Source of the DNA: Oligoflexales bacterium
Lineage (GTDB): Bacteria > Bdellovibrionota_B > Oligoflexia > Oligoflexales > JAPPIL01
Assembly: GCA_965215515.1 (NCBI GenBank)
Contig: OZ244057.1
Coordinates: 864,001 to 928,000, forward strand
Direction: 5' to 3'
DNA length: 64,000 nucleotides
Shown here: piece by piece, positions 5,657-15,738 of the stretch
Position numbering within the stretch: the stretch's first letter is position 1
Layout: each line of letters opens with the position of its first letter
Notes under the pieces: generated by a model
What the model saw: the letters and a program-made list of their open reading frames with translations, nothing else
Told to the model about the DNA's origin: nothing
The model's database searches: none
Program-made: the position numbers and the translations under genes

Positions 5657-6613
5657 CTATTCGGCAAAATGACAAGCGACTTGTGTCCCTTCGACGTTAC
5701 GCAGGACTGGAGCTTGCACACGGCATATCTGTTGTACCCGTGGGCAGCGGGTGTGAAACGCACAGCCGCGCGGTGGGTCGAAGGGTGAGGGTATCTCCCC
5801 TTTCACCGCGGGTGGTTTAGGTCGAGTACCGAGAGCGATACGTGCCGTGCTATCCAGCAGTGCCTGTGTGTAGGGATGGCGTGGTCGGGCGAAGACAGCC
5901 GCGGCACGACCGTATTCCGCCACCTTGCCGAAATACATGACGAGAATATCGTCCGAGATGTGGCTGACCACCGCGAGATCATGGGCGATAACGACGTAGC
6001 TCAGCTGGTAGTCACGCTGTAAAGCCATCAACAAGTTAATGATCTGCGCTTGCACCGAGATGTCGAGTGCTGACACAGGCTCGTCGCAGATAACTATTTG
6101 GGGGCGCATGATGATGGCTCGTGCAATCCCGATGCGTTGCCGCTGTCCGCCGCTAAACATATGCGGGTAGCGATGCCAGTAGACACTTGTCAAGCCTACT
6201 TGTGTCAATACTTCCTGCGCACGTTGCCGACACTCTTGCCGCGACAAAGCAGAATTGACTATTAACGGCTCGGCAACGATGTCGAGCGCTTTGCGGCGTG
6301 GATTGAGCGAGCCGTGGCAGTCTTGAAAAATCATCTGTATACTGCGTCGAAACTCGGCAAGATTGATTGCCGAGTATGGTTTAGCGTGCAGGTAGAGTTT
6401 ACCTGCACTGACGTTTTCGATCTGCATCAGCATCTTGGCTATAGTTGATTTGCCGCACCCTGATTCTCCGATGATACCGAGGGTACGTTGCCGTGCCAGG
6501 GTAAAGCTGACATCGTTGACCACGGTGATTTCTTTGCGCACGTGGGTATAGTGTTTGACGAGATGGCGTGCTTCGAGACAGGGTGTTGCCTCTATGACAG
6601 GGGGTAGTGGCAT
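5657..6613 (-). CDS. dppF: Dipeptide/oligopeptide ABC transporter ATPase
   Basis: GESGCGKS, FSGGQRQR, C-terminal oligo_HPY Cys cluster. Confidence 0.88.
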   Translation of the reverse strand: MPLPPVIEATPCLEARHLVKHYTHVRKEITVVNDVSFTLARQRTLGIIGESGCGKSTIAKMLMQIENVSAGKLYLHAKPYSAINLAEFRRSIQMIFQDCHGSLNPRRKALDIVAEPLIVNSALSRQECRQRAQEVLTQVGLTSVYWHRYPHMFSGGQRQRIGIARAIIMRPQIVICDEPVSALDISVQAQIINLLMALQRDYQLSYVVIAHDLAVVSHISDDILVMYFGKVAEYGRAAAVFARPRHPYTQALLDSTARIALGTRPKPPAVKGEIPSPFDPPRGCAFHTRCPRVQQICRVQAPVLRNVEGTQVACHFAE

Positions 6614-7557
6614 TTTACGGGTCGCTTGTGGGTTAAATCGTAGGGGGGTTTTGTGCGGCGGCACAACTCTGTCGCATACCGACAGCGTGGGTGAAAGGCA
6701 CAACCGCTGATGTTATCGTAGATGCTCGGCACATGTCCTGCGATGGTCGGTAATTCTGCGCCACGTGTTGTTGTCACTGCGGGCAGAGTGTCGAGCAGGG
6801 CTTTCGTATAGGGGTGCCGCGGGGTGAGCAGAACTTCTTTGGTGTTGCCGCTTTCCACTGTTTCACCAGCGTAGACGACGATGATGGAGTTACAGTGTTC
6901 GAAGACAACGTTGAGGTCATGGGTGATAAGTATCATGCTCATTGCTTTTTGCTGTTGTAATTCAGCTAGCAAGGCGAGGATTTGTTTACTGATGGTAACG
7001 TCGAGGGCGGTGGTCGGCTCGTCGGCGATCAGTAGTTTGGGTTGACAGGCGAGGGCGATAGCGACCATCACCCGTTGTGCCATCCCTCCTGACAGTTCGT
7101 GTGGATAGCTGTGCAGGCGTTTTTCTGCGGCGGGAATACCTACCTGTTGTAGTAGTGCGATCGCTTTTGCGCGGTAGGCAGCACGTGAGGCTTGTGGTTG
7201 GTGCACGCGCAGGGTTTCCTGCAATTGGTAACTGACGGTGAAGCAGGGATCGAGGCTGCTCATCGGATTTTGCATGATCATGGCAATCCCTACCCCGCGC
7301 AAGTGGGTGCGACGACTGCGATGCAGGGCGAGTAGATTGGCTTGTTGAAAGTTTAAACGCTGGGCGCGGAGCGTGGCATTGTTGGGCAGGAGGTCGATAA
7401 TAGCGAGGCTAGCGATACTTTTGCCCGACCCTGATTCACCCACGATACCGAGCGTGTCACCTTCGGCCACGTTGAAGCTAAAGTCTTTGACTGCGCACAC
7501 CTTGCCGAGATTAGTACAAAACTCGACTGCCAGTTGTTTCACTTCCAACAAGGCCAT
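6592..7557 (-). CDS. dppD: Dipeptide/oligopeptide ABC transporter ATPase
   Basis: [28 protein letters not shown]. Confidence 0.9.
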
Positions 7558-7560
7558 TGT

Positions 7561-8424
7561 TTATAGTTGCCGTAGTTTGGAGTCGAGACAATCACGTAGC
7601 ATGTCGCCGACCAGGTTGAAGGCCACCACGACGATGAGCACGCAGCAGCCAGGGAGAATTACCAGCCATGGTTCGCTGGCGATGTAGGGGCGGGCATCTG
7701 CCAGCATTGTGCCCCATTCGGGGGTGGGGGGTTGTGCTCCCAGTCCGAGAAAGCCCAGCGCGGCGATGTTGAGGATACCGTCGCTGAAGGCCAGGGTTGC
7801 TTGTACCGTTATCGGAGCGATGCAGTTAGGCAGGATATCGACACAGGCGATGCGCACGTGTCCCGCTCCGTAGCTGCGTGCACAGACGACGTAGTCCTTG
7901 ACTTTCTCTGCCATGACACTGGCACGCACTAAGCGCACAAAATACGGCACGGACACGACACTGATGGCGATGACGGTGTTAAAGAGGCTTGTGCCTAGAA
8001 TACTGACCACGACGATAGCCAGTAGGATACTGGGCAAGCTCAGCACGATATCGGTGATACGCATGATAACGATATCGGTCATCCCGCCGAGGTAGCCTGC
8101 GCATAGACCGATGGAGACACCGCAGATGGTTGAGGTTAGGACGATAAACAGCCCTAGCATCACCGACACTCTTGCACCGTGGAGGAGACGGCTGAAAATA
8201 TCTCGCCCGACATCGTCTGTGCCTAGCCAAAATTGTCCGCTCGGCTTCAGGAGGATAGCTTCGGTAAAGATGTGGTTCGGGTTATGAGGGCTGATAAAGT
8301 CGGCGCAGAGAGCGATGAGAAAAAAAAAGGCGATGATCGTCAGTCCTAGTAATGCTCCTTTGCTGCGGGAAAAATTACGCCAGAACTCTCGTAGGGGTGA
8401 TGGTGGTGTGATGGTAGTGTTCAT
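7561..8424 (-). CDS. dppC: Dipeptide ABC transporter permease
   Basis: LGTDDVGRD, GLGAQPPTPEWG. Confidence 0.9.
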   Translation of the reverse strand: MNTTITPPSPLREFWRNFSRSKGALLGLTIIAFFFLIALCADFISPHNPNHIFTEAILLKPSGQFWLGTDDVGRDIFSRLLHGARVSVMLGLFIVLTSTICGVSIGLCAGYLGGMTDIVIMRITDIVLSLPSILLAIVVVSILGTSLFNTVIAISVVSVPYFVRLVRASVMAEKVKDYVVCARSYGAGHVRIACVDILPNCIAPITVQATLAFSDGILNIAALGFLGLGAQPPTPEWGTMLADARPYIASEPWLVILPGCCVLIVVVAFNLVGDMLRDCLDSKLRQL

Positions 8425-9434
8425 GAAATGCGCAGCCGCGGGTTGATAAGTGCGTAGATGACATCGATGCTGAGGTTGATGATAACGATTAGAGTACCGA
8501 TCAGCAGGACACCGCCTTGAATGACGGGGTAGTCGCGGGCGGTGATGCTGTGCAAGATCCATTTACCGATTCCGGGCCAGGAGAAGATAGTTTCGGTCAG
8601 GATTGCTCCTGCCACCAGGGTGCTGACCAGCAGACCGATGACGGTGACGATGGGGATAAAGGCGTTGCGCAGCCCGTGAATCCAGTACACGGCAAACTTC
8701 GACAGGCCTTTGGCGCGTGCGGCGAGCATATAGTCTTCGCCGATAATTTCTAGCATACTCGCACGGGTGATACGGGCGATCAGGGCTAGGGGTATTGTGC
8801 CCATCGCCACGGCGGGTAGGATTAGGTGGCGCATGGCATCGCGGAACAGCTCGCCGCGATCTTCGCTCACTAGCAGTGTATCGATAAGCATGAAGCCAGT
8901 CACCGAGGGGACATCGTAGATCATGCCGATTCGTCCTGAGACGGGGGTCAGTTCTAGCCAGACCGAGAAGGTGATGATGAGGAGCAGTCCCCACCAGAAA
9001 ATCGGCATCGAATAACCGAGCAGGGAGGTGAACATGACGCTGTAGTCGAGCAGGCCGTTACGGTTGAGGGCTGCCAGCATCCCTAGGGGGATACCCAGCA
9101 CGATCCCGAACAGCATTGCCATCAGTGCTAATTCCAGTGTGGCGGGGAAGCGGGAGAAAAATTCGTGCAGCACGCTGGTTTTGGAGACGATCGAGTCGCC
9201 GAGATTGCCTTGCAGGGCGTTGCTGAGGAAGGCAAGGTATTGCTGTGGCAGGGGTAGGTGCAGACCGAGGGTGCGCTGCATGTGAGCGTAGGTTTCTGGG
9301 CTTGCGTATCGCTCTCCTAGCAGCAGCAGGACGGGATCGCCTGGTACCAGTCTGATCAAGCTGAAGGAGATCAGCGAGATACCCCACAGCGTGATAACGA
9401 ACACAACGACGCGTTTCAGCAGGTAACGTGCCAT
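8421..9434 (-). CDS. dppB: Dipeptide ABC transporter permease
   Basis: PGDP, RFPATLEL, ARAKGL, ETIFSWPGIG, RDYP. Confidence 0.92.
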   Translation of the reverse strand: MARYLLKRVVVFVITLWGISLISFSLIRLVPGDPVLLLLGERYASPETYAHMQRTLGLHLPLPQQYLAFLSNALQGNLGDSIVSKTSVLHEFFSRFPATLELALMAMLFGIVLGIPLGMLAALNRNGLLDYSVMFTSLLGYSMPIFWWGLLLIITFSVWLELTPVSGRIGMIYDVPSVTGFMLIDTLLVSEDRGELFRDAMRHLILPAVAMGTIPLALIARITRASMLEIIGEDYMLAARAKGLSKFAVYWIHGLRNAFIPIVTVIGLLVSTLVAGAILTETIFSWPGIGKWILHSITARDYPVIQGGVLLIGTLIVIINLSIDVIYALINPRLRIS

Positions 9435-9498
9435 GCACAGTTCTCTTGTCCGTTTTTACACGACTGGTGGTCGCTTACCATAGCGCGGCGTGTCTGGC

Positions 9499-9518
9499 AA
9501 TGATAGTGGGCCTAGCCT
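9499..9518 (+). repeat. Putative inversion site S1 (AATGATAGTGGGCCTAGCCT)
   Basis: Identical to the reverse complement of 10487-10506; 19/20 identical to 11894-11913. Confidence 0.8.
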
Positions 9519-9725
9519 AAAGTCTACGTCTCTTGTGCCGCAGGTCGACAAGCACCACCAACTGAGATGGAAACAGCAGTAGATGGAAACGTAGAACAGT
9601 GTGATGATAATAATGCTGGTACAGACGGCACTCAGTGTACAATCGTTGCTACCGATAGTGAAAAATGCACTGTGGTGGTTAAAAGCGGAGATGTAAGTGT
9701 CATGAAAAGTTTGGATTTGTCGTAA
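9499..9725 (+). pseudogene. Silent lipoprotein C-terminal cassette A (no start or signal peptide; 1-nt frameshift at AAA 9519-9521)
   Basis: NDSGPSL followed, with one extra A, by KVYVSC...CTVVVKSGDVSVMKSLDLS*; acidic and Cys-containing like the other cassettes. Confidence 0.65.
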
Positions 9726-9747
9726 TTATTGATCTGCGCAAAGAAAA

Positions 9748-9773
9748 GGAGGAGGAGCGCATGCCTCCTCCTC
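9748..9773. terminator. Hairpin between convergent cassettes A and B (probable bidirectional terminator)
   Basis: GAGGAGG...CCTCCTC stem with an A-run on the left. Confidence 0.6.
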
Positions 9774-9792
9774 GTGTTTGGCAAGGACTCCC

Positions 9793-10614
9793 CTAACCCG
9801 CTGCTCCAGTTACGTCGATTGTTTCCGTTACTTCACTGCCGCTCTCATCGTTAATTGATGCAGCTACGGTGCAAGTGTACGTTGAGCTGTCTGCTAGTTC
9901 GTTGCTGCTATCATCAAGCGTGATACTAGCGGTGTACTCCCCGTTAGTACCAGTGCCCATGTTTACAACTCCTCCAACTCCTGCATCAATGTTGCTGTTG
10001 TCCACACAAGACCAAGACACACTTAAATCATCACCTTCTATACTCCCTGTAACCATAACCTTGGCCCATACTACTGTTCCTTCAGTGACTGCACCAGCAT
10101 CAGCAGCACGCTCACCACCAATAGCGTCGCTGCCATTGTCGTCGTGGATAGCCAAAGTCAGGGTAGGAGTTCCATCATCCCCGTCGCTCGCAGCCTTAAT
10201 TTCAAACTCAACTTCCTTTGCCTCTATCTTCTCACCGCCGAGGGTGGCTGAGGCATTAGCTGTGCATTCTACCGCAGTGCCGTGATCGCCGAGATCAATG
10301 TCACCAAAATCCGCTTTACCAGCCTTAGCCTTCATCTTTTTTTCAACAGCTTCTTCATCTCCACACGCGACAGTCAGGGTTACTTCAGCAGTTTTGTCAG
10401 CATCAGCATCACTAGCGATGCTGACTGTAATGGCTGCACTTTCACCGCCATCTCCCATGGTGACATCACCGATTGTGCCGATAGCCAGGCTAGGCCCACT
10501 ATCATTAGTTTCTGTCCCTTCTTTGTTGTCATCATCCTCTGTATCACAGCCGCTCAGAGCTACAGCAGCCGCGATGACCCACACCATCCTCAAGAACCAA
10601 ACTCTAAACGACAT
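9793..10614 (-). CDS. Variable acidic lipoprotein: constant N-terminus plus cassette B (two Ig-like Cys-paired domains inferred)
   Basis: Lipobox LSGC; first 43 aa identical to 11786..12592, then diverges exactly at the NDSGPSL site. Confidence 0.8.
   Translation of the reverse strand: MSFRVWFLRMVWVIAAAVALSGCDTEDDDNKEGTETNDSGPSLAIGTIGDVTMGDGGESAAITVSIASDADADKTAEVTLTVACGDEEAVEKKMKAKAGKADFGDIDLGDHGTAVECTANASATLGGEKIEAKEVEFEIKAASDGDDGTPTLTLAIHDDNGSDAIGGERAADAGAVTEGTVVWAKVMVTGSIEGDDLSVSWSCVDNSNIDAGVGGVVNMGTGTNGEYTASITLDDSSNELADSSTYTCTVAASINDESGSEVTETIDVTGAAG
10487..10506 (-). repeat. Putative inversion site S2
   Basis: Reverse complement is AATGATAGTGGGCCTAGCCT. Confidence 0.8.
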
Positions 10615-10900
10615 GATCTCTCCTCCGAAAAACAATTGTCTAAAATGTAAACATCATACTGAGTATCTAACCACACAACCGAGCTGCGCGCTACCCCTAT
10701 TCTCTCAAAAAGCGAAAAAAAATCCAACCTTGGGCGCAAAAAATATTTCTAAAATCTTCTTTGTGTCTGCTGAGGGAAGAATTTAAAAAACTGCAAGAGA
10801 ATGGCTGCAAAAACAAAAAACAGACTGCGAATGCCTCCCACTGCGTATGTTTGCATAATCGATAGCAGAGCCCGTCAGTTTGCTGCTCAGATCTTTTTGC

Positions 10901-11505
10901 ATGGACAAGATCGCGGTCAGCGGTAATGTAGCGCACCGTGCTGATTGTGAGCGCATCACCACCGAATGTGTGCGGGCGCGTCCGCCGTAAAATTTCACCC
11001 CATCGAGGAACGTGCCCGTGGTCATCCCCGTCGCCCGCGCCACGAACGATTGATCGACGAGGTGCGTAAGCGGGGGCGTCGGATTTTTCTGATCGGCGAT
11101 GGTGATACCCATCGTCGCGGGCTACGGGCTTGCCACGGCCAATCCTTGACTCGGACATCGAGCGTCCCTGCTCGGTGTTGGCGGTGCACCTGAGGGTGTG
11201 TTGGCTGCCGCTGCCTTGCGGTGTATGAACGGCGATTTTCAGGGACGCTTGATTTTCGGCAGGAGGAGGAGGAAGCCCGTGCCCGCGACATGGGTATCGC
11301 CGATCCCGCTCGGGTTTACAAAATCGACGAGCTTGCTTCTGGCAACGTTATGTTTTGTGCGACGGGGGTGACCACGGGCACGTTCCTCGATGGGGTGAAA
11401 TTTTACGGCGGACGCGCCCGCACACATTCGGTGGTGATGCGCTCACAATCAGGCACGGTGCGCTACATTACCGCTGAGCACGACTTGACCCGCAAAAAGA
11501 TCTGA
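10901..11505 (+). CDS. glpX: Class II fructose-1,6-bisphosphatase, C-terminal part only and garbled as assembled
   Basis: MDKIAV (10901-10918), [59 protein letters not shown]. Confidence 0.85.
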
Positions 11506-11785
11506 GCAGCAAACTGACGGGCTCTGCTATCGATTATGCAAACATACGCAGTGGGAGGCATTCGCAGTCTGCCTTTTTGTTTTTGCAGCCATTCTCTTCG
11601 GCACGTTTTTTAAATTCTTCCCTCAGCAGACACAAAGAAGATTTTAGCTCAAATATTTTTTGCGCACCAAGGTTGGATTTTTTTTCGCTTTTTGAGAGAA
11701 TAGGGGTAGCGCGCAGCTCGGTTGTGTGGTTAGATACTCAGTATGATGTTTACATTTTAGACAATTGTTTTTCGGAGGAGAGATC

Positions 11786-12592
11786 ATGTCGTTTAGAGTT
11801 TGGTTCTTGAGGATGGTGTGGGTCATCGCGGCTGCTGTAGCTCTGAGCGGCTGTGATACAGAGGATGATGACAACAAAGAAGGGACAGAAACTAATGACA
11901 GTGGGCCTAGCCTGATGGTCGCTTTTGACCCAGCAACCCCTGAAGCTGGAGCAGAAGCTACAGTCGTAGTAACTGTCAAAGATGGTGAAGCCGATGACAA
12001 GATCAATATCGGCGTTATGTGCGGCAAGAGCGAAACACTGGCCGCGCAAGATTATGAAGTTAAAGACAACAAAGCGACCAGCGCTCAGTTTGGTGTTCCT
12101 GAGGCTGGAGGGGCAAAGATAACCTGCACCGCGACTGCTTCAGGTAAAGTTGGGGATAAAGACCTAAGCGAAGAAAAGTCTTTCGACATCGACGTGGCTG
12201 GCAGCAATGAGGAGGAAGCCGCTGCTCCGACACTACGATTTCAACCTGATTCTACTAGTGAGCTAGATGCATTAGAACCAGGTGCGACTGAAACTCCGGA
12301 GATTAGTGTTGAAATCATCGACGATGCAGGCAGGGTAGATGGTGATAGTACTTTAGATGTGACCCTATCTCTAACCTGCGGTGTAGATGAAATTGACCTC
12401 AACGGCAACAACACCCCTGGCAATGCCGCAATAATAGCAGCGGTGGCGGGTGTGGCAACTTTCCCCCCTATGTCGAACCTGAAGGAATTCACCGCTGGTA
12501 AATGTACTCTGAAGGCCGAAGTCGGCACTGAGGGCCAACCAGATTATCGCGTAAAAGAGTATGAGCTTACCATCGTCGCCCCCACCGCCTAA
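11786..12592 (+). CDS. Variable acidic lipoprotein: constant N-terminus plus cassette C
   Basis: GGAGGAG RBS; lipobox LSGC; two beta-rich domains each with a Cys pair. Confidence 0.85.
   Translation: MSFRVWFLRMVWVIAAAVALSGCDTEDDDNKEGTETNDSGPSLMVAFDPATPEAGAEATVVVTVKDGEADDKINIGVMCGKSETLAAQDYEVKDNKATSAQFGVPEAGGAKITCTATASGKVGDKDLSEEKSFDIDVAGSNEEEAAAPTLRFQPDSTSELDALEPGATETPEISVEIIDDAGRVDGDSTLDVTLSLTCGVDEIDLNGNNTPGNAAIIAAVAGVATFPPMSNLKEFTAGKCTLKAEVGTEGQPDYRVKEYELTIVAPTA
11894..11913 (+). repeat. Putative inversion site S3 (AATGACAGTGGGCCTAGCCT)
   Basis: 19/20 match to S1 and S2. Confidence 0.8.
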
Positions 12593-12598
12593 CAAACT

Positions 12599-12629
12599 GG
12601 AGAGAGGAGGCACACGGCCTCCTCTCTCC
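12599..12629 (+). terminator. Hairpin downstream of cassette C
   Basis: GGAGAGAGGAGG/CCTCCTCTCTCC 12-bp stem directly after the stop codon. Confidence 0.6.
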
Positions 12630-12725
12630 GTCATGCCCACATAGAGAGCGAAGCCTCCGCGGGTTTTTAGCCTAGCATTTTGTTTTCTCGCCATCGCTTC
12701 TGTATAATGATCCCGATGCGAGGAG

Positions 12726-13580
12726 GTGCGGGTGGCAAACGAGCGTGTCTGCCCACTGCGTTATCAGCAACCCTGTTGTCGGGGCACGGGTTACGTGGTG
12801 CGGCCTGAAGGAGGTGTGGCACAAGCCGAGCGCTGTGTATGCGTTTTGCGTTGCCCGCTGTGCGTAGGCAGCAACCTACTCCCCATCGAGGGCGTAAGCC
12901 GAGTTTGTAAACGCCCCCCTCCAGGAGAAGTGATCGCCCGCTTCAACCGTGCCGCCATCCCCGCCCGCTTCGCCAACGCTACTCTGGATAACTTCACCAA
13001 CTTGAACGACGACATGTCGCGCCACCTCAAGGCAATGCGAAATTGGCTACAAACCTTTCGTCCCGCTACCAGCAGAGGATTAATGCTGTCAGGGCCAGTC
13101 GGAGTGGGTAAGACGCACCTGCTAGTGGCACTGACCCGCGAACTGATAAAGAAAAACATCGACGTTAAATTCATCGATTTTTTTCAACTGCTGTCGATCT
13201 TGCGAGACGGTTTCGCCAGCGACCGCTCGGAATTGAGCACACTCGAACCACTGATGGCCGTCGACGTGCTGGCCATCGACGAAATCGGTAAAGGACGCAA
13301 CAGTGAATGGGAAAAAAATATCCTCGACCAACTTATCATGGGACGCTACAACCGCAACCGTACCGTGATCGCCTCAACCAACTACCGCCTGACCCTGCCC
13401 AGAACAGTCAAACGAGGATCATTCAACGTGCCCCTCGACACAGGAGAAGAGAGAGAACGCCCCCCCGACTACAGCCTGAAAGAATTACGCACGACGATCG
13501 GTGAACGCACCTACTCACGCCTAGTGGAAATCACGGATTTTTACGAACTGCACGGTAACGATTTTCGGCAGCTGCGATGA
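12726..13580 (+). CDS. DnaC/DnaI/IstB-like AAA+ ATPase with N-terminal Cys-rich Zn finger
   Basis: GPVGVGKT, LAIDEIG, IASTN, GERTYSRLVE, GNDFR; CCRGTG..CVC..CPLC. Confidence 0.85.
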   Translation: MRVANERVCPLRYQQPCCRGTGYVVRPEGGVAQAERCVCVLRCPLCVGSNLLPIEGVSRVCKRPPPGEVIARFNRAAIPARFANATLDNFTNLNDDMSRHLKAMRNWLQTFRPATSRGLMLSGPVGVGKTHLLVALTRELIKKNIDVKFIDFFQLLSILRDGFASDRSELSTLEPLMAVDVLAIDEIGKGRNSEWEKNILDQLIMGRYNRNRTVIASTNYRLTLPRTVKRGSFNVPLDTGEERERPPDYSLKELRTTIGERTYSRLVEITDFYELHGNDFRQLR

Positions 13581-14308
13581 TGCTGCGCCGCTGCCTGCTG
13601 CCCGAACTCAGCAACCACAAAGCACGCTCCCCCTTCATGGGACTCACCCGCAGCGAAACCCAGGCGACAGCCGACCACACCTGGTTCAACTGCTGCGCAG
13701 GCACAGGACAACAAACCACACCCGCAGGCATTAAACTCTGCCCCCTCGCACAACACTTGACAAAATTACAAACACTACTCGATCTCTACCAACGCGGCTG
13801 GGGGACAGGACATAAACAATTCCTCTACGCCGTGCTCAGCAAGATCGACCTACAAAAACTCGCCGCCCTCAACGAAGGAGCACAGGTGAGCGGACGACTG
13901 CTGACCTCCACAAACACCACCACCCCAGGGACACTGTGGCCATTAGCCGTCGCCGCTGCCTGGCGGTTCAATTTCCCCGTGCACTTCATCACCCTGCACA
14001 CCGCCAGCAAAGACAACCTACTACCATCCCGCCACCTCCCCAACACCCTGATACTAGTCGAAAACCACCTCCCCCCCTGGCACCCCGACACCATGCTCGA
14101 CTGCGAAGTAATCGTCAACTACTGCTACAATACCACCACCCCCCTGTGGTTCGATTTTGTGCGCAGCAAAGCCCCCCCCACCCCGACCGCAGCCAACGCC
14201 ATGCTAGCCAGCCTGCGCCAGCGCGTCGCGCGTCTGCGACGAGGTAGCCCCCTACCCTACTTCAGCCCCGAAGGACGAGCGAAACTGCGCGCCATGGGCA
14301 TGATCTAG
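13577..14308 (+). CDS. Hypothetical protein, possibly a degenerate P-loop fold
   Basis: Start overlaps the ATPase stop; LILVEN resembles a decayed Walker B. Confidence 0.55.
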   Translation: MMLRRCLLPELSNHKARSPFMGLTRSETQATADHTWFNCCAGTGQQTTPAGIKLCPLAQHLTKLQTLLDLYQRGWGTGHKQFLYAVLSKIDLQKLAALNEGAQVSGRLLTSTNTTTPGTLWPLAVAAAWRFNFPVHFITLHTASKDNLLPSRHLPNTLILVENHLPPWHPDTMLDCEVIVNYCYNTTTPLWFDFVRSKAPPTPTAANAMLASLRQRVARLRRGSPLPYFSPEGRAKLRAMGMI

Positions 14309-15615
14309 CGCGACCTCCCCCACGGCCATGACAAGCCTGACACACCGAAATTAAACCGTGAGCCACCAGGCGTACATAGTTCGAGAGAACCTCCGAGACC
14401 GCGAGAATCGGCTCTGACCTGAAAATCGCACAGCGTAGCCCACTGACAGGGGCTATGGACATGCGTTTGGTGTCCGAGTGGCACACAGTACGAGTAGTAG
14501 AGTTGAGGATCGAAAGTTGCCGTGTAGCCTCGGTCACAGTAACACCGCCCGAAGGGATTACCATCTTTGTACGTGCCTCTCCCTCTCTCCCATCGATGCG
14601 TGGGGCCAGGGCTGAGGGCATGCTCCTCGCAACGAATGCGCTCGTATTCACGCTTCGGAATCGGGGGGGAATGCCCTCCCAATCCGGTTTCTACCGACAC
14701 CATGCCCCCTTCAATTATTATCGTTTCCTTACCTATGCGGGGGTCCAACGAGTCGCGCCGACAGATGATCGGTTGCTGAAACTCCCCGAAATGGACGCCG
14801 CCAGAAGCTTGACACTTCCCGCCAATAAACCTCATACCCTGCAGTACGCATCTCAGCTCTTCTGACGACTCTGGTATCGTCGTGACGAAGTCATCTCCCA
14901 AATCGAGACACGAACCCCGAAACCACACTCCTTGGCGGCAGTTACAACGCCCCCCGTTATAACTTACGCCGTAGAGATCTCGGCACATGAGCTCCATCCC
15001 AGCTTCGGCGACTGGCCCTAGGCAACCACCGAAGCTGGGATGGAACAAGGATAGCGGGTCGTCGCACACACAAACACCGTGGTCCTGCCCGTGAAATGTT
15101 GCTCCCGTGCCACACATCATCTTGGTATGATGCCACACGATAGGCTCGCATTGCCCCGTCAAGGCATTGAACTGTCGCTCGCCATCGCACGAGCAGAATC
15201 CAGCATGATTCCACTTCGCCATTGCTCGTTGGCAGGCGCTTTGCAGTTGCGGCGCGCCGAACCCCTGCCGATTACCAGACTGCACGCCGCAGGGTGCATG
15301 CATATTGCTACTGTCATATATACTGCCGTTAGCACACAGGCACGTGCCGTCGGCTTGCAAGCGTGCGCCGCCGTAGCATTGCTTGTCGTGCTGGCACTGA
15401 AAATCATAAGCACCCGCGCCACTAGGTACTACTTTGCGATAGCCATGCTTACATACACACTCGTCACCTACCCAAACTGTGTTGCTGATTTTCCGACAGG
15501 CACTTCGTTGTCCTCCGTCGCCTTTCCCTCCGTCTGGGCAACTGCTGCTCAGCACTGCTGACAGCACTACCGTAGCGAGTGATACCGTCGTCCGAACTGC
15601 CACTGCACACCTCAT
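14305..15615 (-). CDS. Cys-rich secreted lipoprotein with EGF-like repeats
   Basis: Hydrophobic leader ending LSSSC; six CxC modules (CVCKHGY, CLCANG, CSCDG, CVCDD, CNCRQG, CYCDRGY). Confidence 0.7.
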   Translation of the reverse strand: MRCAVAVRTTVSLATVVLSAVLSSSCPDGGKGDGGQRSACRKISNTVWVGDECVCKHGYRKVVPSGAGAYDFQCQHDKQCYGGARLQADGTCLCANGSIYDSSNMHAPCGVQSGNRQGFGAPQLQSACQRAMAKWNHAGFCSCDGERQFNALTGQCEPIVWHHTKMMCGTGATFHGQDHGVCVCDDPLSLFHPSFGGCLGPVAEAGMELMCRDLYGVSYNGGRCNCRQGVWFRGSCLDLGDDFVTTIPESSEELRCVLQGMRFIGGKCQASGGVHFGEFQQPIICRRDSLDPRIGKETIIIEGGMVSVETGLGGHSPPIPKREYERIRCEEHALSPGPTHRWERGRGTYKDGNPFGRCYCDRGYTATFDPQLYYSYCVPLGHQTHVHSPCQWATLCDFQVRADSRGLGGSLELCTPGGSRFNFGVSGLSWPWGRSR

Positions 15616-15738
15616 AACACCAGTCACCTGCGCTGTCGGCGAAAATGAGGCACAGCCTTAGTTTTATCTTGCAGGGAGGAAAACTATGCCTGAGGGGTGT
15701 CGGATGCGGCCAGGTCTACCCGACTGCGGCGACTAAAA

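Follow-up and report, generated by a model that had tools for sequence, protein, structure and literature searches.

Phase variation has been described mostly in host-associated bacteria. At the sap locus of Campylobacter fetus, one promoter on an invertible segment serves either of two opposed surface-protein genes, and inversion proceeds by RecA over long 5' homology (about 600 bp). In the Gin, Cin and Hin systems and in R64 Rci, the constant 5' part stays in place and the invertase gene adjoins the segment. The sap locus comprises sapCDEF and multiple sapA copies, according to the accessible text of PMC4943207. For Mycoplasma pulmonis, the available portion of PMC2268961 describes vsa (HvsR) as a system in which inversion sets a 5' unit of promoter, ribosome-binding site and signal peptide before silent lipoprotein bodies that lack their own 5' end. 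Invertons, shufflons and gene-altering programmed inversions have been found by reads of both orientations and are, as far as the accessible parts of the surveys go, mostly 3' or specificity domain swaps beside a recombinase gene (PhaVa, PMC10028968; Milman et al., PMC9881135); the accessible part of PMC10028968 contains no mention of misassembly, i.e. of assembly palindromes as an inverton artefact.

The system presented here, located in a 64-kb window (the whole stretch of DNA analysed, to which all positions refer), is a Mycoplasma vsa-like switch with a housekeeping passenger gene. As in the available description of vsa, a promoter and a 5' coding region are joined in frame to 5'-less lipoprotein bodies at short intragenic sites. 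The locus differs from vsa in having only two bodies and one apparently dead remnant, in having no adjoining tyrosine recombinase, in a moving unit that also carries a housekeeping gene, probably whole, and in belonging to an unrelated lineage (the nearest named GlpX matches are Bdellovibrionota). With sap it shares an invertible promoter segment with passenger genes, sapCDEF there and glpX here; however, the repeat here measures 34 bp and, judged from a flank-linked variant, the crossover seems to be fixed, and the sap passengers act in the same function (S-layer secretion), which glpX does not. It resembles the partial intergenic invertons of the surveys, as far as their accessible text describes them, in that one repeat lies in coding sequence and inversion changes the protein made, and it departs from the invertons described there in that the mobile part is the promoter with the 5' end, which switches between two flanking bodies. 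Short inverted repeats, a module with convergent alternative C-terminal cassettes (between the sites S1 and S2 below) and a small, conserved serine recombinase that is the candidate for the enzyme recall Gin/Cin/Hin and R64 Rci, whereas here the 5' part moves, no invertase is adjacent and no hix/gix-like site was seen by eye.

The assembled palindrome and the run contigs

In the deposited assembly, positions 10486-11914 (1429 nt) form a near-perfect palindrome with its symmetry point at 11200.0, as the original prediction had claimed (about 11200). Between the outer arms (10486-10733 and 11667-11914), 247 of 248 positions are complementary and 10501 versus 11899 is the lone mismatch; in a gapped alignment the arms reach further, to about 10486-11040 and 11359-11914, with 8 additional letters in the spacer of the right arm, one letter missing from the left arm and one divergent patch. 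The left arm carries on the minus strand, at 10520..10900, a reversed lipoprotein 5' end (ATG at 10614), a 272-nt spacer and the last 14 nt of glpX, all exactly matching read contigs. Inside this reversed arm lies a forward glpX patch (MDKIAV codons, 10896..10918, plus strand), recognised by a contig joint and by its match to the same-genus genome G001: the part already noticed at 10901-10918 is identical to the G001 glpX at 18/18 positions, and in all four runs 10918 is joined to 11031 with its 23-nt side on the same strand as 11031-11491. The next stretch, 10919..11030, is a minus-strand mirror copy of the glpX 3' end (equal to 11363-11474, one letter missing), identified by alignment and a minus-frame tblastn match, and sits where forward glpX codons about 127-164 belong. 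A reverse patch within the forward glpX, earlier described as 11104-11131 mirroring 11273-11298, was likewise recovered: 11095-11140 matches the mirror of 11265-11305 in 31/35 aligned columns in the assembly versus just 13/19 in the read-supported sequence. The assembled centre (11071-11260) is garbled, with 10 substitutions, 13 extra letters and 1 missing letter.

Reads were checked as per-run contigs, the nearest available equivalent of clustering reads by orientation, from four public runs (one study, three samples) placed on window positions 9000-13200. The runs hold 2.1-6.3 million contigs each, counts that suggest community samples, and only 0.85-0.87 of the sampled words of the stretch are present in them. 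All four belong to one study that may include the genome's own source data; the comparison is a test of the assembly and not independent biology. Contigs lose rare variants and may merge small ones, so a rare palindromic molecule or a divergence between orientation classes could escape.

The palindrome was absent from the contigs of all four runs, and none of these contigs reads through the assembled centre without changes (10 substitutions and 14 indel letters). Instead, in each run a single 1427-nt contig carries one copy each of the glpX 3' part, the spacer and the 5' end of the lipoprotein gene, together with 579 nt that match nothing in the window. On one strand this contig aligns to 10502-10900 (10502-10820 in runs X1 and X4) with 0 differences and 0 gaps, and on the opposite strand it covers 11031-11491 (11031-11571 in X1 and X4). 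One contig-comparison statistic, the share running on unlike the window, was 0 in every run, in conflict with these 579 unplaced letters. The left-flank contig spans 9000-10519 with 0-1 differences and ends at 10519, and the right-flank contig begins at 11881 and spans 11881-13200 with 0-2 differences, in all four runs. K-mer depths of the segment contig and the left flank, which are rough and do not give shares of cells, were 38.5/38.1, 8.8/9.0, 55/54.5 and 18.9/20.2 by run. Low or zero depth in bins 11538-11819 is a placement effect, since each contig was placed once and the identical left arm took it, and is no evidence on the right arm.

At each border, all four runs contain a pair of alternative junction contigs of 42 nt. 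The first reads as in the assembly; the second connects the border with the segment's unseen end and continues into CGGGGTTTTGAG (mirror: CTCAAAACCCCG), a sequence found nowhere in the window. Junction depths by run (as assembled/alternative) were 19/23.4, 6/3, 50/32.4 and 4/8.5 at the left border and 19/15, 5/4.3, 30.2/27.2 and 12.5/10.2 at the right border. With two junction forms at both borders in each run, both orientations co-exist in every run. The claim that the assembly merged both orientations thus agrees with the contigs of all four runs, in which neither of the two opposite outcomes (reads reproducing the palindrome, or one orientation only) was found. Of the wording 'actively flipping', the co-existence of orientations in three samples stands; the switching itself we infer.

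We consider it very probable that the palindrome is an assembly mix-up of both orientations of one real invertible segment that carries glpX and the lipoprotein 5' end with its promoter. The assembler would have joined the left half of the reverse orientation to the right half of the forward orientation, and polishing would then have mixed both; such mixing would account for the artificial palindrome, the garbled centre and a falsely truncated glpX. The segment measures 1427 nt between crossover cores (about 1459 nt with repeats) and is single copy. It had been proposed that glpX, spacer and lipoprotein 5' end fill the interval between the repeats almost exactly; the real segment is 30 nt longer than assembled, so the fit holds approximately and the mosaic is only roughly in register. 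The idea that the arms are a repeat of about 550 bp failed, the real repeat being only 34 bp.

Repeats, lipoprotein cassettes and glpX

The 34-bp inverted repeat, AGGGACAGAAACTAATGAYAGTGGGCCTAGCCTG, is present as S2 on the left (10486..10519, minus strand; delimited by arm alignment, the contig end at 10519 and the junction contigs) and as S3 on the right (11881..11914, plus strand; delimited by arm alignment, the contig start at 11881 and the two junction forms). The two copies are complementary at 33/34 positions, and contigs break exactly at the repeats. S3 covers the last base of lipoprotein codon 32 and codons 33-43 (GTETNDSGPSL). Both 42-nt left junction contigs start at 10490 and show 0 differences over 10490-10519; because the variant at 10501 stays with the flank in both junction forms, the crossover is placed within 10502-10519 (the inner 18 bp), and the flank-linked 10501/11899 variant points to one fixed crossover point.

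A repeat search revealed that the outer 20 nt of the repeat occur a third time, as S1 (9499..9518, plus strand). S1 is identical to S2 and inverted relative to it, and direct relative to S3 (19/20 identical). Within the window there are 3 copies of the 14-nt site core (at 9505, at 10487 on the minus strand and at 11900) against a chance expectation of about 0.35, a count of 3 being reached in 1/100 shuffles; the core was found nowhere else in the 2.18-Mb genome. Inversion between S1 and S2 was not seen in the contigs, which can drop rare variants: one contig runs unbroken through S1 in 4/4 runs. The 34-bp repeat has no motif in common with five other inverted-repeat pairs in the genome, and inspection by eye against consensus sequences revealed no convincing internal dyad or hix/gix-type site in it.

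The constant lipoprotein 5' end (11786..11880, plus strand; assigned from the ORF and homologues) encodes the signal peptide, LSGC (Cys23), which we take to be the lipobox, and an acidic linker up to codon 32; residues 1-12, 15-20, 22 and 23 are invariant in 4/4 genus homologues. Junction contigs show this 5' end at either border. The variable bodies both lie outside the invertible segment: cassette B (9793..10485, minus strand; codons 44-273 and stop, within ORF 9793..10635 with ATG at 10614) and cassette C (11915..12592, plus strand; codons 44-268 and stop, defined by its ORF and the right-flank contig). The resulting lipoproteins B and C have 273 and 268 aa, share residues 1-43 and are both fused in frame. 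A promoterless remnant, cassette A (9519..9725, plus strand; from reading of the ORF), meets a stop after 27 codons when read in frame from S1 (9580-9582); a 52-codon ORF in another frame of it (9567-9725) resembles lipoprotein C-termini, by eye only. Between the convergent cassettes A and B, a GC-rich hairpin (9739..9780), with a terminator-like site on the minus strand at 9773-9746, is likely their shared terminator, judged from sequence. The AT-rich spacer between glpX and the lipoprotein (11506..11785, plus strand; GC 0.38-0.42), defined by composition and alignment and 8 letters longer than its left-arm copy, presumably holds the lipoprotein promoter and ribosome-binding site; the promoter and terminator scan gave no more matches than in shuffles, with only weak sigma-70-like matches in the spacer.

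Searches with the lipoprotein gave only a sub-threshold Big_5 match in Pfam and Atlas scores of at most 0.85, which are leads only. Its AlphaFold model is weak (mean pLDDT 58.8, all beta strands) and retrieved generic tandem beta-sandwich proteins with Foldseek (TM 0.2-0.33), which at most suggests two beta-sandwich domains. In the searches for relatives, none was found for lipoprotein B among genome contigs or for lipoprotein C among metagenome contigs.

The glpX gene runs on the plus strand from RPRH to the stop codon at 11031..11505 (family match, tblastn and contig differences). The assembled version matches PF03320 only over model positions 162-307 and contains a stop; once the contig differences are applied, 11032-11505 becomes 462 nt, as long as in intact relatives, and is free of internal stops. 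The corrected C-terminal part (153 residues) matches the database GlpX P0125 at 144/153 positions and is identical in the versions from X1 and X2. The expectations on the geometry of the gene were borne out: MDKIAV, said to precede RPRH by roughly 45 aa at a matching spacing, does so by 132 nt in relatives and 131 nt here (10901 to 11032), GlpX of relatives has 316-317 aa (about 320 had been stated), and a full gene in the register of the assembly would begin at about 10540-10543 (near 10540 had been stated). From length arithmetic and the 23-nt piece at 10896-10918, the N-terminal 164 codons are probably encoded in the 579 unplaced nt. For the claim that glpX rides on the switch, its 3' part is indeed on the segment and intact, and the N-terminal codons would follow by this reasoning. 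These data indicate that glpX is intact, as directly observed for the C-terminal 153 residues and as deduced for the remainder. No further FBPase gene was found in the genome, where the search for a class I FBPase gave no match.

Both same-genus genomes contain an intact 316-317-aa glpX. In G001, two convergent lipoprotein genes form an analogous pair, with a perfect inverted repeat of 442 nt. In the genomes G001, G002 and G003, glpX has no adjoining lipoprotein gene and DNA similarity stops at glpX itself, so the glpX-on-switch arrangement is known only from the present genome. No GlpX of the same species was found in the protein collection (best match P0125, 76/80 residues), and no same-species locus among genome contigs with a GlpX query (best 68% identity; near records may be left out) or among metagenome contigs with a GlpX C-terminus query (best match 72%).

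The proposed inversion mechanism and rival readings

On the preferred reading, the segment would consist of a leader of about 70 nt, a complete class II fructose-1,6-bisphosphatase gene glpX, the 272-nt spacer and lipoprotein codons 1-32, with the 34-bp repeats inside lipoprotein codons 32-43. In one orientation the promoter and signal peptide would be fused in frame to body C, reading rightward, and in the other to body B, reading leftward, so that each cell would make one of two surface lipoproteins, while glpX would merely change strand. Inversion is probably recurrent and catalysed by a site-specific recombinase encoded elsewhere. No recombinase gene was found among 20 ORFs scanned across 1926-32067 of the window, nor an HvsR/Xer-like tyrosine recombinase in the locus. 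The genome contains 6 Resolvase-family matches, the nearest about 36 kb away, and a single tyrosine recombinase match (PF00589, at 2016122, more than 1.1 Mb away). A small serine recombinase of 213 aa, encoded 315 kb away at genome positions 559245-559886 and kept in 3/3 relatives searched (64-81% identity), is a candidate for the inversion enzyme.

A real palindrome, i.e. an inverted duplication of about 555 bp that destroyed the N-terminal half of glpX and left lipoproteins B and C both constitutive, is exactly the structure that the deposited single-contig assembly displays, with both lipoprotein ORFs complete, and loss of glpX is conceivable given that the gene was not found in 12 of the 31 genomes searched, several of them incomplete. 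Yet the palindromic centre is on no run contig, the arms lie on one contig at flank-like and not double depth, the alternative junction contigs enter sequence missing from the assembly, and the frameshifts of the centre are gone in the contigs. A duplication would also leave the patches at 10896-10918 and about 11104-11131 unexplained, and no other FBPase gene was found. The run contigs thus largely refute this reading, which we regard as highly improbable.

Two co-existing strains separated by a one-off inversion, for example by a rare RecA-dependent exchange at the 34-bp repeats, would involve no programmed switching. Contigs of apparent community samples demonstrate co-existence only, no recombinase is adjacent, and small flank differences exist between samples (9891, 10128, 12261-2), all of which such strains would accommodate. 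They fit less well with the depths of the two forms, which are of the same order in each of the 3 samples, and with the lack of any contig break or variant that splits the classes over 3517 + 1427 + 4736 nt. The repeat lies exactly at the boundary between constant and variable protein with both fusions in frame, the third site and cassettes that converge on a likely shared terminator are in keeping with a built switch, the flank-linked 10501/11899 variant favours a fixed crossover over homologous exchange anywhere along 34 bp, and a sister species has an analogous inverted-repeat lipoprotein pair. Taken with these points, the two-strain explanation appears unlikely.

Consequences for the genome and the lineage

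As deposited, the 'complete' single-contig genome has lost half of its only FBPase gene to an artificial palindrome, and annotators would take glpX for a pseudogene and gluconeogenesis for broken. A near-perfect palindrome about as long as one plausible gene set, with a garbled centre and small opposite-strand patches roughly in register, is a signature that could be screened for in long-read assemblies and could reveal unresolved invertible segments.

There is a small chance that glpX is not an accidental passenger. Recombination by the same chemistry between S1 and S3, which are in direct orientation, could excise the whole intervening stretch; with the sole FBPase gene of the genome in it, such deletions would be costly and the switch would be anchored; alternatively, expression of glpX and the lipoprotein may be coupled. 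If so, with glpX immediately preceding the lipoprotein 5' end on the same strand, lipoprotein dosage could be linked by read-through to expression of a gluconeogenic gene, and inversion could alter glpX expression through the changed upstream context. Under the preferred reading, the locus is a read-supported two-state surface-lipoprotein switch in an uncultured lineage whose nearest named GlpX relatives are Bdellovibrionota, and a housekeeping metabolic gene is an unusual cargo for a promoter-bearing invertible element.

The palindrome and the contigs of four sequencing runs

As assembled, the 1429 nt of 10486-11914 form a palindrome with its midpoint at 11200.0, confirming the symmetry about ~11200 that had been noticed in the original prediction. 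In the outer 248 nt of the arms 247/248 positions are complementary, the sole mismatch being 10501 versus 11899. A gapped alignment carries the arms over ~10486-11040 and 11359-11914, where they differ by 8 additional letters in the right-arm spacer, one letter missing from the left arm and a divergent patch at ~10901-10918. Both arms contain a lipoprotein start, an AT-rich spacer and a glpX 3' end; the lipoprotein starts (ATG 10614, minus strand, and ATG 11786, plus strand) encode a signal peptide with LSGC and Cys23.

Contigs from four public sequencing runs (X1-X4; one study, three samples, possibly including the assembly's own data), in which 0.85-0.87 of the 31-letter words sampled from the stretch occur, were placed on 9000-13200 and gave the same pattern in 4/4 runs. 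The left flank is a 3517-nt contig ending at 10519, and the right-flank contig begins at 11881. A 1427-nt contig matches 10502-10900 (10502-10820 in X1 and X4) without a difference and then, on the opposite strand, 11031-11491 (11031-11571 in X1 and X4), the end-points varying because 80 letters fit either side. Its 10 substitutions and 14 indel letters relative to 11031-11491 all lie within 11071-11260, and an extra 23-nt piece falls on 10896-10918 in the strand of 11031-11491 (joint 10918->11031). The window accommodates 848 of its letters and the other 579 match nothing there, a remainder that could not be reconciled with the unlike run-on share of 0 given in the placement output. At each border two contigs of 42 nt occur, of which one is window sequence (10490-10531; 11869-11910) and the other departs after 10519 or before 11881 into CGGGGTTTTGAG (mirror CTCAAAACCCCG), which is absent from the window.

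Junction depths (as assembled/alternative) were 19/23.4 left and 19/15 right in X1, 6/3 and 5/4.3 in X2, 50/32.4 and 30.2/27.2 in X3, and 4/8.5 and 12.5/10.2 in X4. The segment contig was about as deep as the left flank (38.5 vs 38.1, 8.8 vs 9.0, 55 vs 54.5 and 18.9 vs 20.2); such contig depths are rough, do not give shares of cells and support no finer statement than 'same order' and 'not doubled'. Were the palindrome true, as the assembly has it, the arms should be doubled, a contig should cover the centre and alternative junctions should be missing, but the contigs of the four runs showed none of the three. Both junction forms occurred at both borders in 4/4 runs, which supports the predicted mixed-orientation consensus. 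The assembly is in reverse orientation up to 10900, holds a forward patch at 10896-10918 (its first letters compatible with either orientation), returns to reverse with one error (10919-11030), and is then forward at 11031-11070, forward with mixed noise at 11071-11260, clean forward at 11261-11571, forward with 8 spurious letters at 11572-11666 and clean from 11667.

Two local details of the prediction also held. The forward patch MDKIAV (10901-10918) is 18/18 identical to the codons of the same-genus genome G001, and lies 131 nt upstream of RPRH, compared with 132 nt in relatives. The proposed reverse patch is indeed reverse-orientation sequence: 31/35 columns of assembled 11095-11140 agree with the mirror of 11265-11305, against only 13/19 for the read-supported sequence, and the patch is therefore leakage of the reverse orientation into the forward consensus. 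The garbled centre is assembly noise.

The segment and its glpX cargo

The contigs and repeat comparison give a true repeat of 34 bp (10486-10519, 11881-11914) rather than ~550 bp. In both junction forms the 10501/11899 variant remains with its own flank, placing the exchange within the inner 18 bp (10502-10519). RPRH starts at letter 581 of the 1427-nt contig; by arithmetic, the glpX start codon would lie 163-164 codons upstream, at letter 89-92, leaving ~70 nt between repeat and glpX. Next would come glpX with 951-954 nt, then 272 nt of spacer, then the lipoprotein 5' end with 95 nt (codons 1-32 without the final base of codon 32, part of the repeat core) and lastly the repeat core, all adding up to 1427 nt. 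By this reckoning the real segment exceeds its assembled image by 30 nt.

Against the genes of G001 and G002, also of this genus, the forward reading begins at RPRH (11032) and ends at the stop (11505), its frame changing twice within ~11100-11260, and the left side holds a mirrored copy of the last ~45 glpX codons. When the contig differences were applied to 11032-11505 by script, 462 nt resulted, the RPRH-to-stop length of both relatives, with no internal stop and 144/153 residues matching the closest database GlpX (P0125); the difference lists of X1 and X2, though written differently, yield the identical sequence. The window glpX is the sole PF03320 match of the genome (model positions 162-307 only, with an internal stop), and a search of the genome for class I FBPase (PF00316) gave no match. 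PF03320 is present in 19/31 genomes searched, this one included. In G001 and G002 glpX is intact (316-317 aa) in a different neighbourhood, and glpX as segment cargo is seen in this genome alone.

The probable lipoprotein switch and its surroundings

Lipoproteins B (9793..10614, minus, 273 aa) and C (11786..12592, plus, 268 aa) have residues 1-43 in common and then diverge. The sequence at the divergence point has a third copy at 9499-9518 (S1) and none elsewhere in the 2.18-Mb single-contig genome. Inversion between the 34-bp repeats would make a unit of promoter and signal peptide face either body C or body B, both fusions being in frame at codons 33-43 (GTETNDSGPSL), and switching is probably recurrent. 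The predicted lipoprotein fold may resemble two beta-sandwich domains. Run contigs differ within the bodies at 9891 (C>T, X4), 10128 (C>T, X3) and 12261-2 (AG>TT, X2 and X4), thus some strain variation exists in the variable cassettes.

Behind S1 comes cassette A, a remnant without a promoter whose in-frame reading stops after 27 codons; it converges with body B over a hairpin common to both (9739-9780). We read this left neighbourhood (S1, cassette A, body B, hairpin) as a second, classical module; none of the contigs of the four runs showed an S1-S2 inversion. A dppB-like permease gene (8421..9434, minus) starts just 65 nt from S1, with no substrate-binding-protein ORF upstream of it, and S1-S2 inversion, if it occurs, would alter the upstream context of this transporter operon. 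Three genes lie just to the right of cassette C: an IstB/DnaC-like ATPase whose N-terminus is rich in cysteine (12726..13580), an ORF without family (13577..14308) and, on the minus strand, a cysteine-rich ORF of 440 aa (14305..15627).

The closest case with passenger genes is the C. fetus sap locus, where a promoter and sapCDEF lie on an invertible segment. Of this, PMC4943207 bears out the gene content of the locus only. The switch logic is that of M. pulmonis vsa, where, according to excerpts of PMC2268961, site-specific inversion brings a promoter, ribosome-binding site and 5' coding region before silent lipoprotein bodies; it is also compatible with 'partial intergenic invertons' and shufflons as excerpted from PMC10028968, PMC9881135 and PMC11868660. 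By the tests run, the switch belongs to neither the HvsR/Xer nor the Hin/Gin family.

Candidate recombinase and related loci

The linkage of the variant to its flank, the shortness of the repeat and its placement precisely at the constant/variable boundary speak for a site-specific recombinase, rather than general homologous recombination, as the responsible activity. A scan of 20 ORFs across 1926-32067 found no recombinase near the segment; genome-wide there are 6 Resolvase-family matches and 1 tyrosine recombinase match. The best candidate, as a lead, is a 213-aa small serine recombinase ORF 315 kb from the segment (G000:C1:559245-559886, in this genome; 1447-2088 of locus L025), with a Resolvase N-terminal domain and a weak HTH_7 match. 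It is kept in 3/3 relatives searched, with 80-81% identity in the two other genomes of the genus and 64% in the sister genus, which is more suggestive of an invertase passed on vertically than of a transposon resolvase. Bacteria mostly carry two Xer proteins; the only Phage_integrase-family match in this genome is G000:C1:2015756-2016658 (L031 1135-2037, 300 aa, E 7.8e-10), in whose product a catalytic tyrosine is not obvious by eye near the C-terminal end.

Elsewhere on G000:C1, outside the window, further clusters of inverted repeats within 15 kb lie at 230222-244554 (arms 175-538 nt), 1154218-1171260, 1864697/1868976 (236 nt), 2087191/2088629 (47 nt, 1391 apart) and 2091790-2109428; none of them forms a tight palindrome of the kind at 10486-11914. 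An element of 45-94 nt recurs at 1155427, 1161939, 1166668 and 1679034.

Lipoprotein homologues occur in 3/31 genomes, all of this genus. G002 carries a single copy and no repeats. In G001 the paralogues form a convergent pair (L042, G001:C1:2074000-2088000, at 5840-7683), comprising 5840..6775 (plus strand, with signal peptide) and 6851..7597 (minus strand, without), with a common inverted repeat of 442 nt that is 100% identical (5922-6363, 7242-7683). The pair could represent a further set of invertible C-terminal cassettes or a further assembly effect, and variation of this lipoprotein by inversion may thus characterise the genus. The segment studied here is a known kind of switch with an unusual cargo, and the assembly artefact that it left is instructive.
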